A stretch of DNA of 64,000 nucleotides from Escherichia coli (GTDB lineage Bacteria; Pseudomonadota; Gammaproteobacteria; Enterobacterales; Enterobacteriaceae), in assembly GCF_003790525.1 (NCBI RefSeq), contig NZ_CP033635.1, one strand, 5' to 3'. The notes beneath the pieces are model-generated. The model worked only from the letters and a program-made list of their open reading frames with translations, had not been told where the DNA came from and made no database searches. The position numbers were made by a program, and so were the translations under genes. Below are positions 20,776 to 63,998 of this stretch, one piece after another; position 1 is the first letter of the stretch; every line of letters starts with the position of its first letter.

Positions 20776-21815
20776 CACGCAAGGCACAGCGTCGCGCGAT
20801 GTTTGGCGGATTCGATGCCCTGCTCAATCAACTCCATTACCTGGATTGCCTGACTTGCCGGAACCGGATTTTCACCATCGCCATTTAACGCATCACGAAT
20901 AGCCGCATAGTAAGCCGGATAATTCCCTGGTACTGTCAACAGCGTTTCTTCGACACGTTCCTCACCTTCCACGCGGGTAAGTACGCCATCACGCATATCG
21001 TAGCCCCAGTCTTCCTGCGGCAGACGCTCGCCATTTTTCAGACGTTCTTCCTGTGGATCGAGGCCATATTTCACATAACTGCCTCGGGATCCATGCACGA
21101 TATAACGTGCTGACTCAGCAGCTGCCAGCATGGTACCGTGTAAAATGACTCGCCGCTGCGGATAGGACAAGATGGCGTGGAAATAATCGGTCGACTGCGC
21201 TCCGGGCCGTAACTGTGCCAAATCAACCGTCATGCTGACCGGTAAACCAAATAGCGTAATGGCCTGATCAAGAAGATGCGGTGCTAAATCGTACCAGATA
21301 CCGCTGCCAGGACCGCCCTGTTCACGCCAACGATCGCGCACCTGCGGACGGAAGCGGTCAAAATGAGACTCAAAGTAAGCAACTTCACCCAGTACGCCTT
21401 CCACGAGCAAACCTTTTAGCGTCAGGAAATCGCTATCCCAGCGACGGTTATGGAATACAGACAGCACACGCCCCAGGCTTTTTGCCAGCGCTTCCAGCTC
21501 TCGCGCTTGTGACAGTGTCACGGTAAAGGGTTTATCAACGACCACATGTTTACCCGCCTCAAGCGCCGCTTTGGCTAACGGGAAATGGGTATCGTTGGGT
21601 GTAGGAATGACAATCAGGTCTATGTTGGGATCGTTAAACAGATGCTTCGGCTCAGAGACAACCGCAACCGTTGGCCAGTCGGCTTTTACTTTTGTTTCAT
21701 CGCTGCTGGAGATTACCGCCAGTTCCAGCCCGGGCGTGCCCGCAATCAGGGGCGCATGGAAGGTTTTGCTCGCATAACCATACCCAATCAACCCAACACG
21801 GATGTTGTCGCTCAT
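20775..21815 (-). CDS. ydgJ: Gfo/Idh/MocA-family NAD(P)-dependent oxidoreductase YdgJ
   Basis: 346 aa from MSDNIRVGLIGYGYASKTFH (Rossmann fold); the tracked ORF begins 13 codons upstream at a GTG. Confidence 0.85.
   Translation of the reverse strand: MSDNIRVGLIGYGYASKTFHAPLIAGTPGLELAVISSSDETKVKADWPTVAVVSEPKHLFNDPNIDLIVIPTPNDTHFPLAKAALEAGKHVVVDKPFTVTLSQARELEALAKSLGRVLSVFHNRRWDSDFLTLKGLLVEGVLGEVAYFESHFDRFRPQVRDRWREQGGPGSGIWYDLAPHLLDQAITLFGLPVSMTVDLAQLRPGAQSTDYFHAILSYPQRRVILHGTMLAAAESARYIVHGSRGSYVKYGLDPQEERLKNGERLPQEDWGYDMRDGVLTRVEGEERVEETLLTVPGNYPAYYAAIRDALNGDGENPVPASQAIQVMELIEQGIESAKHRATLCLA
21509..21521. other. matS site (MatP-binding; GTGACAGTGTCAC) within ydgJ
   Basis: Exact match to the 13-bp palindromic matS consensus GTGACRNYGTCAC; the window is in the Ter macrodomain. 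Confidence 0.65.
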
Positions 21816-54951: not shown

Positions 54952-55189
54952 CAAGTTTTCTCCTTTTTTATTACCACACAAAAAGTGATATTACGCATTT
55001 TTACACACTGTGATGAAAAAATCTCCCGTCATTTATAATGATAAGTGTTTTTACCACTTCCCCTTTTCGTCAAGATCGGCCAAAATTCCACGCTTACACT
55101 ATTTGCGTACTGGCCATTGACCCCTTCCTGACGCTCCGTGTCGTTTTTCCGGCGTACCGCAACACTTTTGTTGTGCGTAAGGTGTGTAA

Positions 55190-55205
55190 AGGCAAACGTT
55201 TACCT
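55190..55205. promoter_or_regulatory. PUR box (purR autoregulatory operator O1): AGGCAAACGTTTACCT
   Basis: Matches the PurR operator consensus (core GCAAACGTTT); 45 bp upstream of the purR ATG. Confidence 0.7.
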
Positions 55206-55249
55206 TGCGATTTTGCAGGAGCTGAAGTTAGGGTCTGGAGTGAAATGGA

Positions 55250-62244: not shown

Positions 62245-62277
62245 AGGCGCAACCTTCACGGGTTGCGCCTGTGTTTT
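62245..62277 (+). terminator. Rho-independent terminator after mdtK
   Basis: 10-bp stem AGGCGCAACC/GGTTGCGCCT followed by GTGTTTTT. Confidence 0.65.
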
Positions 62278-63533
62278 TACGCAGGCTGGAGCGTTGCGCC
62301 AATCCCGTCTTCGTCTGGCTGTAGTTTCAGTGCGTTACACAGAGTTTGCCGACTGGCATCTGTTATCTCAACGTGTATATCACCAGTAACTTCCCCTTTC
62401 ACATTGATGAAGTCAGGTGAAATTTCTTTCGCACTGGTTTGCAGGCAAATCGCTCCCTCTCCGCGCAGGCGTTTCACTTTAAGTTGCACATGCGTTGCCG
62501 CACCAGTGATTAGCCACAGTTTTCCGCCATTGAGATTGATGTTACCAACACTGAAAGTGACACTGTCACCTTTTATCGTACTGCCGTCGAGAATCAATAC
62601 ACCGCCCTGCTGTACAGTAATCGTTGATTGTTGCAGATCTGCGCCATAGCCAATAATCATTGAAGCGCCGTCCAGTAATGCAACACTACCGGTCAGTTCA
62701 ACCGGTGCGCGATCTTCCTCTACGACAAAATTTTCGTCCGCGCTGGTGGGTGACAACAGGATCACTGTCCCACCTTGTATTACCGCATTTTCCAGCGTAC
62801 CGGCATGCACTTCAGCCCGACCACCCACATTAACGGACAGGTTTTGCGTCTTACCGGAACTGTAGAGCTGAAGACCATCCGTCCCCAGACGATAGATGGC
62901 TCCATTCTCAACAATAGTGTCAGAGTCTTCACCACCGAGATTATTCATGGTGCCACCAGCAAGCAACGTATCATTGGCTTTCCCCGCCAGCATAAAAACG
63001 CCGCCCTGATTAATCTCACAATTGCTGGCTTCCCCACCTGGATACACCAACAATTCACCACCTTCATCTACCACGACCGCTGAGGTTGTCCCATTGACCA
63101 ACAGGCCACCCTCTTGATCGAGAATAATTTTTTCCGCGCGATGGCCTTCCAGTACACGCAGGTTACCGCCATTTTCCAGCAACAAACCGCAGGCATAACC
63201 TTTATCAACGCTGAATTCACCTTCGGGATGGCGGCCATTAACCGTAGCGAGCGTAGAGAGACTAATTGCGCCTCCCTCGGACTGAACAATATCTGTGGCA
63301 ATGGCACCGTCGCTGACCGATAGCGTGCCATTGTTGCCGTACTGTGTGCATTTGGCGATCCCACCGGTTGCCACTTTCAACCAGCCAGCCCCCGTGACCA
63401 CGGTATTTTCGGCTCTTCCGCCAGCCTCAACAATTAACTCGCCTTCAGTAAGTTGCGTCGCGCCAATGACCTCGCCGGTCTTAACAATTTGCACGTTCCC
63501 GTCGCTCATCAAGTTTTTCGCATCAGATCCCAT
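62277..63533 (-). CDS. ydhQ: YdhQ: AIDA-like beta-helical repeat protein (autotransporter-passenger-related), uncharacterised
   Basis: 418 aa; repeated Gly-rich motifs about 19 aa long (e.g. GGxLxV/GGxAxN); no obvious N-terminal signal peptide and no C-terminal beta-barrel domain. Confidence 0.8.
   Translation of the reverse strand: MGSDAKNLMSDGNVQIVKTGEVIGATQLTEGELIVEAGGRAENTVVTGAGWLKVATGGIAKCTQYGNNGTLSVSDGAIATDIVQSEGGAISLSTLATVNGRHPEGEFSVDKGYACGLLLENGGNLRVLEGHRAEKIILDQEGGLLVNGTTSAVVVDEGGELLVYPGGEASNCEINQGGVFMLAGKANDTLLAGGTMNNLGGEDSDTIVENGAIYRLGTDGLQLYSSGKTQNLSVNVGGRAEVHAGTLENAVIQGGTVILLSPTSADENFVVEEDRAPVELTGSVALLDGASMIIGYGADLQQSTITVQQGGVLILDGSTIKGDSVTFSVGNINLNGGKLWLITGAATHVQLKVKRLRGEGAICLQTSAKEISPDFINVKGEVTGDIHVEITDASRQTLCNALKLQPDEDGIGATLQPA
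62567..62579. other. matS site (MatP-binding; GTGACACTGTCAC) within ydhQ
   Basis: Exact match to the matS consensus GTGACRNYGTCAC. Confidence 0.65.
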
Positions 63534-63840
63534 GATTTATTCCTTTGCTGCATCTGTGTGCCTTTATTGCTACCTAAGTGTAAAGGCTACGAAGGATTTA
63601 TCCACGACAGATTTGAGATGGTGGCAAACAACTCTGTTTAAACTCTGATACACGGATTATTGGGTTGTATCAGATGTAAATGCGATCCTGAATAAAAATC
63701 GCCCTTGCAAATCAACAAAATATAGCCAATTTGCTTAAAAGCTCTGCAAACGGTCGAAATAACGCAGAAAATTACGTTTTGCCTCTTGCCACCTTCCCAC
63801 TCTGCCGCTAATATTCGTCCCCGTTGTCACCTACAACGTT

Positions 63841-63917
63841 GCGTTCATAGCTCAGTTGGTTAGAGCACCACCTTGACATGGTGGGGGTCGTTGGTTCGAG
63901 TCCAATTGAACGCACCA
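63841..63917 (+). tRNA. valV: tRNA-Val (anticodon GAC)
   Basis: 77 nt: GCGTTCATAGCTCAGTTGGTTAGAGC...anticodon loop CTTGACAT...TTCGAGTCC...CGCACCA; cloverleaf with encoded CCA. Confidence 0.9.
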
Positions 63918-63921
63918 TCCT

Positions 63922-63998
63922 GCGTCCGTAGCTCAGTTGGTTAGAGCACCACCTTGACATGGTGGGGGTCGGTGGTTCGAGTCCACTCGGACGCACCA
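63922..63998 (+). tRNA. valW: tRNA-Val (anticodon GAC), second tandem copy
   Basis: 77 nt: GCGTCCGTAGCTCAGTTGGTTAGAGC...TTGACAT...CGCACCA; differs from the first copy in the acceptor and T stems; 4-nt spacer. Confidence 0.9.

Follow-up and report, generated by a model that had tools for sequence, protein, structure and literature searches.

Ag43 (Flu/Cah) is a type Va autotransporter of the self-associating autotransporter (SAAT) group, and AIDA-I and TibA are glycosylated adhesins of the AIDA type. The passengers of autotransporters are thought to fold only after export. The gene ydhQ, located near one end of a 64,000-nucleotide stretch of Escherichia coli DNA (contig NZ_CP033635.1; hereafter the window), encodes a protein that resembles these passengers. 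The gene and its annotation, the lack of a leader, and the control by sigma-32 have each been published before, and a report from 2026 presented YdhQ under the name 'leaderless autotransporter', with display of cargo once it is fitted with an exogenous leader, and did not address the absence of a barrel (PMC13101318). The present analysis adds an explicit statement of the missing translocator, the restriction of ydhQ to the Escherichia lineage, figures for purifying selection together with two hyper-conserved elements of the protein, and the conservation of a matS site embedded in the gene. Selection has preserved the gene intact in every Escherichia species examined, and this, combined with the listing of ydhQ among sigma-32 targets, suggests that YdhQ has probably taken on a new task in the cytoplasm and is not a degenerating adhesin. 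If true, this would clearly exemplify the re-use inside the cell of a module from a secreted adhesin, one that is part of the core genome of an entire genus.

Architecture and predicted fold of YdhQ

YdhQ is rich in glycine (15.3% of residues) and matches the Pfam family AIDA (PF16168, E=5.8e-28) in three stretches, as well as the strand-loop-strand repeat model TIGR04415. A previous sequence-only reading of the window had described degenerate glycine-rich repeats of about 19 residues, and a period of 18-19 residues proves to be the more exact value. Specifically, BLOSUM autocorrelation peaks at lags of 17-19, 27, 36, and 54 residues (z of 2.4-3.8 relative to shuffles), and the predicted strand pattern gives its best autocorrelation at 18-19 residues. 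An AlphaFold2 (AF2) model, for which orthologues and collinear segments of distant relatives were used as input, is an all-beta solenoid made up almost entirely of short beta-strands, with a mean predicted local distance difference test (pLDDT) score of 90.2 and a predicted template modelling score of 0.87. Only residues 1-3 and 265-274 are modelled with low confidence. When this model was compared with the PDB using Foldseek, the matches were structures of Ag43 (7ko9, 7koh, 4kh3, and 7kob) and of TibA residues 55-350 (4q1q), with E values of 1e-8 to 1e-11, and other autotransporter passengers and tailspikes ranked far behind. A phmmer search of PDB sequences matches YdhQ to Ag43 at 1e-25. The beta-helix proposed in the sequence-only reading is therefore also what structure prediction returns.

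From residue 1-2 onward, the segment comprising amino acids 1-328 shows homology to rungs in the interior of the Ag43, AIDA-I, and TibA passengers, and it is followed by a Pertactin-type junction. The open reading frame (ORF) terminates immediately ahead of the FxLxxxVxAGAYxYxL segment, which full-length relatives have together with a linker and the beta-barrel. Such relatives, recovered by an exhaustive HMMER search of 1.84 billion representatives, are not orthologous and share 28-38% identity with YdhQ. Their architecture comprises an ESPR/leader (ESPR present in P0026, P0075, and P0152), AIDA repeats, a Pertactin/AC_1 region, and an Autotransporter barrel (present in P0098, P0121, P0164, P0165, P0171, P0075, and P0152). 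YdhQ aligns with the internal part of these proteins from residue ~2 to ~415. Because the alignment is internal and stops before the end of the autochaperone, YdhQ is, on this comparison, a piece from within an AIDA/Ag43-type passenger that lacks both ends. The same search yielded no longer relative above ~40% identity with a leader or barrel, and thus no longer orthologues of the kind that the sequence-only reading proposed to look for were found. The closest full-length relative is P0026, a protein of 1534 amino acids with 38% identity (Logan SRR33454298, L017:1-11847). Its gene is accompanied by a second AIDA-type autotransporter gene and by genes for NEL/LRR E3-ligase-type effectors, a neighbourhood suggesting that the host is an enterobacterium with type III secretion.

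The N terminus does not resemble a signal peptide. The highest 12-residue Kyte-Doolittle mean within residues 1-50 is 1.08, and neither a hydrophobic core nor a basic n-region, Tat RR motif, or lipobox is present there. The ESPR profile has no match in YdhQ in a Pfam search, and SignalP 6.0 likewise returned a negative result (PMC13101318). At the other end of the protein, no match to the beta-barrel family PF03797 was obtained even at E<=1. Export as a type I (RTX) substrate was considered and rejected because YdhQ carries no GGxGxD repeats (GG.G.D / RTX nonapeptide repeats are absent), and because its neighbours mdtK, ribC, and the tRNA-Val genes include no adjoining secretion genes or ABC transporter/membrane fusion protein (ABC/MFP) export genes. 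Four features of type Va autotransporters can be examined in sequence, and YdhQ exhibits only the passenger fold. It lacks the Sec leader, the complete autochaperone domain, and the C-terminal 12-stranded barrel, and for this reason it should not be filed as an autotransporter, even if its sequence indicates that it clearly derives from one. Lacking both the Sec leader and the beta-barrel, it cannot use the type V pathway.

The ORF itself is as the sequence-only reading described it, and the coordinates of its features are collected in Table 1. In reverse orientation, ydhQ of the window matches positions 1516732-1517988 of the E. coli SMS-3-5 chromosome (NC_010498.1) with 100% identity, and its K-12 counterpart is b1664, annotated as 'putative adhesin-related protein YdhQ' (1,744,871-1,746,127). 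A conserved in-frame TAA at positions 63537-63539, two codons upstream of the start codon, closes the reading frame and excludes an N-terminal extension. Residues 1-418 align with profile positions 1-418 of the NCBIfam equivalog NF007409 (PRK09945) at 942.1 bits (cut-off 830), and by this profile YdhQ is a full member of its own family. The sequence-only reading had named a conserved family of this length with a known cytoplasmic function as a finding that would speak against it; the family of exactly this length exists, and no cytoplasmic function is known for it. The protein is very acidic, with a computed isoelectric point of 4.4 and a net charge of about -26. PADLOC models of anti-phage defence gave 0 matches to YdhQ, and PHROG gave only repeat-level matches to families of unknown function. 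Apart from the tRNAs, an Rfam scan detected no RNA family within or adjoining ydhQ. The stop codons of the convergent genes ydhQ and mdtK are separated by just 40 nucleotides, which are occupied by a terminator hairpin.

Table 1. Features of ydhQ and its surroundings. Positions are those of the window.
Feature	Position	Strand	Description
ydhQ coding sequence	62277..63533	minus	418 amino acids plus stop; start codon ATG; annotated 'AIDA repeat-containing protein'
AIDA-type beta-helix rungs, residues 1-328	62550..63533	minus	Rungs of 18-19 residues; Pfam, AF2, Foldseek, phmmer, alignment, rung period
Pertactin/autochaperone junction, residues 329-403	62325..62549	minus	First 78 of 121 profile positions (PF03212)
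Most constrained block, residues 94-148 (STLATVNGRHPEGEFSV...LLENGGNLRVLEGHRAEK...)	63090..63254	minus	Predicted beta-hairpin and two rungs; dN/dS 0.035
Acidic loop SPTSADENFVVEEDRAP, residues 261-277	62703..62753	minus	dN/dS 0.049
Perfect matS GTGACACTGTCAC	62557..62569		Exact match to GTGACRNYGTCAC; inside ydhQ codons 322-326
Shine-Dalgarno AAGGA	63541..63545	minus	8 nucleotides upstream of ydhQ ATG
Candidate sigma-32 promoter GTTTAAA-N13-CACCATCT	63616..63643	minus	-110..-83 from ydhQ ATG; position inferred
Bidirectional GC-rich terminator hairpin	62245..62270		Common to convergent ydhQ and mdtK
valV-valW tRNA-Val(GAC) pair	63841..63998	plus	Divergent from ydhQ; bounds the putative Escherichia-specific insertion together with mdtK

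Selection, distribution, and the embedded matS site

The entire YdhQ protein is under purifying selection. Among the 5426 complete E. coli genomes, 5425 carry the gene, with 80% or more of its length covered in 5424. Orthologues overall have 418-419 amino acids and 72-97% identity; those of E. albertii, E. marmotae, E. ruysiae, E. whittamii, and unnamed Escherichia lineages all span exactly 418 codons. The most divergent orthologue (L006:1-1636, Logan SRR31578456) has 419 amino acids and 72% identity, with a saturated synonymous rate (dS). Nei-Gojobori ratios of nonsynonymous to synonymous rates (dN/dS, or omega) between the orthologues and the window copy range from 0.07 to 0.13 at dS of 0.22-1.07, the pooled omega of seven sequences is 0.108 (bootstrap 0.088-0.133), and no 40-codon window has an omega above 0.21. 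For comparison, the dN/dS values of mdtK and ribC are 0.01-0.04. In a neutral simulation, 0.24% of trials retain an open reading frame at a divergence of 0.2, and 0/5000 do so at divergences of 0.4 or more. The constant length of the ORF, its low dN/dS, and this simulation indicate that ydhQ is not decaying now. The 'decayed adhesin' of the sequence-only reading thus survives as a description of history, given the likely origin from an internal passenger fragment, but fails as a description of the present state of the gene. Neighbouring genes are disrupted in single strains: ydhS of SMS-3-5, located just past the end of the window (L013:3399-4996), is annotated as frameshifted, and mdtK of GCA_000208585 (L010) is split into ORFs of 138 and 327 amino acids. 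The neighbours therefore decay in individual strains, and ydhQ stays intact.

Two elements stand out by their low dN/dS (Table 1). The loop spanning residues 261-277 is predicted to be disordered, with pLDDT below 50 at residues 265-274, and is ~9 residues longer than the corresponding segment in aligned full-length autotransporters. Conservation of a disordered insertion is hard to ascribe to folding alone, which makes this loop the best candidate for an interaction site. A separate signal is present at the nucleotide level. Within codons 1-14 (positions 63492-63533), 7 of the 9 codons for invariant amino acids with degenerate codons are nucleotide-identical in eight species, compared with 31% gene-wide (binomial P ~0.005), and the last 75 nucleotides of the 5ˊ leader are also conserved. 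The ydhQ mRNA is a predicted CsrA target. Conservation of these synonymous positions and of the leader suggests that initiation might be controlled at the RNA level.

The distribution of ydhQ is confined to one lineage. A scan of one genome per species located YdhQ at five loci, all in Escherichia (E. fergusonii was not among the genomes recovered), and a word-indexed search returned only orthologues and fragments from Escherichia and Shigella. The gene order ydhR-valVW-ydhQ-mdtK-ribC is present in E. marmotae and E. ruysiae and recurs wherever flanking sequence is available. In Salmonella, mdtK is followed by a gap of ~150 nucleotides, valVW, and then type III secretion genes, and in Pseudenterobacter the mdtK-valVW gap of ~410 nucleotides contains no ydhQ. 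No remnant was detected when YdhQ was compared with the mdtK-valV loci of these two genera by tblastn. The presence of mdtK-valVW without ydhQ in both genera suggests that the gene was probably gained by insertion in the Escherichia lineage, with the direction of gain judged from these outgroup loci. Composition gives no sign of recent transfer, with 51.3% GC in ydhQ versus 51.0% in the window.

Some further observations concern this locus. In Salmonella enterica (L011:8371-15371), genes of the Bac_export, FliP, SepQ, and FHIPEP families lie directly beyond the valVW pair that abuts mdtK, and we take these type III secretion genes to be part of Salmonella pathogenicity island 2 (SPI-2). The same tRNA-Val pair is thus flanked by lineage-specific DNA in both genera, on one side in Escherichia and on the other in Salmonella, and this DNA differs between them. 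Around the most divergent ydhQ orthologue (L006), the valV-proximal upstream sequence is kept, the downstream sequence is different, and the gene has no matS.

The perfect matS site noticed in the sequence-only reading is indeed an exact match, and in K-12 it is located at 1,745,151. PMC3330122 describes matS as the 13-bp target of MatP, repeated 23 times in the 800-kb Ter macrodomain. A second perfect site, GTGACAGTGTCAC, is located at positions 21509-21521 inside the oxidoreductase gene ydgJ, 41 kb away. Two exact matches in the 64-kb window, where 0.02 are expected by chance, fit a location within the Ter macrodomain. Among eight distinct Escherichia orthologues, both 5-nucleotide arms of the ydhQ site (GGT GAC ... 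GTC ACT) are invariant, which is true of only 7 of 1241 (0.6%) 13-nucleotide windows of the gene. The centre codon varies between AGT, AAT, AAC, and GAT (Ser, Asn, or Asp), and this corresponds to the three degenerate positions of GTGACRNYGTCAC. Invariant arms combined with variation restricted to the degenerate centre indicate selection on the matS DNA itself, beyond selection on the protein. Replacing or deleting ydhQ consequently removes sequence that bears the hallmarks of a Ter-macrodomain site.

Expression and candidate functions

Published data list ydhQ in the sigma-32 (heat-shock) regulon. A table of sigma-32 sites compiled from chromatin immunoprecipitation on microarrays (ChIP-chip) and other methods includes ydhQ, which was re-detected with a ChIP signal of 1.4 at the old K-12 coordinate 1,744,259 (PMC2996942; the original mapping by Nonaka et al. 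2006 is cited here second-hand). The gene also appears on the RpoH regulon list used in PMC2710865, and it belongs to the same set of differentially expressed genes as yciS, ycjF, ycjX, and yhdN (PMC2868799), of which yciS, ycjX, and yhdN are also in the sigma-32 target table (PMC2996942). Upstream of ydhQ, a candidate promoter matches the consensus CTTGAAA-N13-CCCCATNT at 11 of 14 positions (with N13-15 allowed), a score reached by 31 of 2000 shuffles (1.6%). After our own conversion of K-12 coordinates between genome versions, this motif falls at about the position of the published ChIP signal. Its -10 element is partly conserved between species. A scan for sigma-70 promoters gave no minus-strand site upstream of ydhQ.

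The protein is produced, as it was quantified in a label-free proteome in which it dropped 5.5-fold with vanillin. A leaderless fusion of YdhQ to pFAST is fluorescent, cytosolic, and folded, and a leaderless agarase fusion shows no external activity (PMC13101318). Two observations concern the intergenic DNA of the region. A published FlhDC site from genomic systematic evolution of ligands by exponential enrichment (SELEX) is located at positions 63741-63790 in the ydhQ-valV spacer, inside a valV-proximal stretch of ~145 nucleotides that hardly varies among Escherichia species and presumably represents the upstream activating region of the tRNA promoter. Farther away, an Rfam match to STnc550 (396 bits) on the minus strand at positions 54859-55249 covers the purR-ydhP intergenic region, which holds the 29-codon gene cydH (ynhF).

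A folded, acidic solenoid that has no access to type V export, is under purifying selection, and exhibits published heat-shock control and cytosolic behaviour leads us to infer that YdhQ acts by binding. We favour, with a confidence only somewhat above even, the interpretation that it is an exapted cytoplasmic binding scaffold that acts under heat or proteotoxic stress and is controlled by sigma-32. This agrees best with the suggestion in the sequence-only reading of a cytoplasmic beta-helix with another role: the cytoplasmic part is supported by the missing leader and barrel, the cytosolic fusion, the sigma-32 listing, and the detection of YdhQ in cell proteomes. In this scheme, the Escherichia lineage would have acquired, between mdtK and the valVW promoter, a piece of a self-associating passenger of the Ag43/AIDA-I/TibA type that comprised ~17 rungs and two-thirds of the autochaperone junction. 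This insert would have gained its own ribosome-binding site, start codon, and sigma-32-type promoter. The product would then fold in the cytoplasm as a soluble, very acidic, right-handed beta-solenoid and remain there. Selection would maintain the whole fold, most strongly residues 94-148 and the YdhQ-specific loop at residues 261-277, and the rigid solenoid would present both of these elements to a cytoplasmic partner under heat or proteotoxic stress.

Several observations weigh against this interpretation. The main weakness of every functional reading is that the Keio deletion of ydhQ, for which no defect is reported, is used as a neutral control or landing site. The dN/dS of ydhQ is 5-10 times that of mdtK and ribC, and positive selection was called at sites of the gene when 92 E. 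coli genomes were scanned; such a pattern would be more usual for a surface or conflict protein. Outside E. coli, the -35 part of the candidate sigma-32 promoter is poorly conserved. In one paper, ydhQ is stated second-hand to be needed for early adhesion (the original claim, Roux et al. 2005, is likewise second-hand here). YdhQ copurified with EF-Tu, and an E. coli RNA-interactome study counts it as one of 17 uncharacterised candidate RNA-binding proteins; both results fit an expressed cytoplasmic protein, but the two approaches are prone to contaminants and the evidence is weak. Finally, apparent surface display is observed once an exogenous leader is added (PMC13101318). Given that YdhQ has no beta-barrel translocator, the reported display is left without a mechanism, and it may reflect periplasmic leakage.

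The adhesion statement (which the same source couples to positive selection) and the rise in reporter activity with an exogenous leader (PMC13101318) would be expected if YdhQ were a surface or extracellular adhesin with a role in adhesion or biofilms like that of its Ag43-type relatives, an explanation we regard as unlikely. Homology and fold match to self-associating adhesins, the listing of COG3468 members including YDHQ in extracellular-vesicle proteomes, the FlhDC site bound in vitro in the ydhQ-valV spacer, and the almost invariant N-terminal 12 residues are also in its favour. The protein would have to leave the cell through leaderless secretion, vesicles, lysis, flagellar type III export, or a barrel provided in trans. 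However, it carries no Sec, Tat, or lipoprotein signal, no barrel, no RTX nonapeptides, and has no adjoining secretion genes, and the unrecognised export route mentioned in the sequence-only reading gained no positive support. The leaderless fusions described above behave as cytosolic proteins without external agarase activity (PMC13101318), sigma-32 control points to the cytoplasm, many cytoplasmic proteins are present in vesicle proteomes, and the display assay offers no explanation of how a protein without a barrel could cross or be anchored in the outer membrane. Next in order of probability, and also improbable, is the view that ydhQ encodes a functionless relic that is kept for DNA reasons such as the matS site, the spacing of the valVW activating region from mdtK, or the shared terminator. 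Apparent purifying selection would then reflect selection against toxic misfolding of an expressed beta-helix. The invariant matS arms, with only 0.6% of windows so conserved, the deletion without a reported phenotype, and the relaxed dN/dS relative to neighbouring genes agree with this view. Yet a 13-bp site cannot account for a dN/dS of ~0.11 over 418 codons and constant length at dS of ~1, and the orthologue with 72% identity and 419 amino acids lost matS but kept its full ORF. Moreover, the disordered loop is among the most conserved parts of the protein (omega of 0.049) despite being unprotected by folding constraints, and deletion of the gene or silencing of its promoter would be an easier escape from toxicity.

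Two further proposals keep YdhQ inside the cell. With low probability, YdhQ might be a new heat-shock protein, in which a sigma-32-induced fragment composed of passenger and autochaperone handles beta-rich, aggregation-prone polypeptides. The open end of the helix or the truncated autochaperone would template, cap, or hold such polypeptides, and the clients might be pre-secretory autotransporter passengers. If true, this would extend the 'autochaperone' principle from type V secretion to proteostasis in the cytoplasm. The least probable proposal, for which we see very little chance, is that YdhQ is an RNA- or ribosome-associated factor in translation or RNA metabolism. It builds on the listing among the 17 RNA-binding candidates, the copurification with EF-Tu, and the predicted targeting of its mRNA by CsrA. 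An isoelectric point of 4.4 and a net charge near -26 speak against direct RNA binding, however, and Pfam and NCBIfam searches match YdhQ to no known RNA-binding fold or motif. EF-Tu often turns up as a contaminant, and the accessible text of the interactome study gives no individual validation of YdhQ. The findings also have practical consequences for two current uses of the gene. Employing ydhQ as a neutral landing or control locus, as is widely done, assumes that it is functionless, and employing YdhQ as a display anchor, as recently promoted, assumes that it has a translocator; neither assumption is supported by the sequence.

Comparison with known systems

Ag43 is the best match of YdhQ in both sequence and fold. 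The NCBIfam model auto_Ag43 aligns with YdhQ through model positions 249-443 at 1.5e-25, but the score of 89.6 bits is far from the cut-off of 1200. Both proteins contain three-sided rungs of 18-19 residues, the hairpin motif ATVxGxxxxGxFxV, and a Pertactin-type junction after the repeats. The leader, the complete autochaperone, the linker, the 12-stranded barrel, and surface display are found only in Ag43. Furthermore, flu is an accessory gene in E. coli, whereas ydhQ belongs to the core. With AIDA-I and TibA, YdhQ shares AIDA repeats and the TIGR04415 'O-heptosylation target' repeat, and the structure of TibA residues 55-350 (4q1q) is among its top fold matches. In contrast to these adhesins, ydhQ has neither an export apparatus nor an adjoining heptosyltransferase gene, and the NCBIfam model for AIDA-I gives 53.5 bits with YdhQ against a cut-off of 1200. 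Similarly, residues 329-403 correspond to positions 1-78 of the Pertactin-type autochaperone (PF03212 / PF18883), but the last third of the full domain, including the AGAYxYxL segment, is missing.

YcgV is another AIDA-type protein of K-12 with a poorly predicted leader, and it is called a 'leaderless autotransporter' in the same display toolkit (PMC13101318). YcgV has 955 amino acids, of which the C-terminal 334 serve as the anchor construct, and it behaves as a classical autotransporter that is not functional in the cytoplasm (PMC13101318). YdhQ, by contrast, is a barrel-less protein of 418 amino acids that folds in the cytosol, and it works like none of its relatives.

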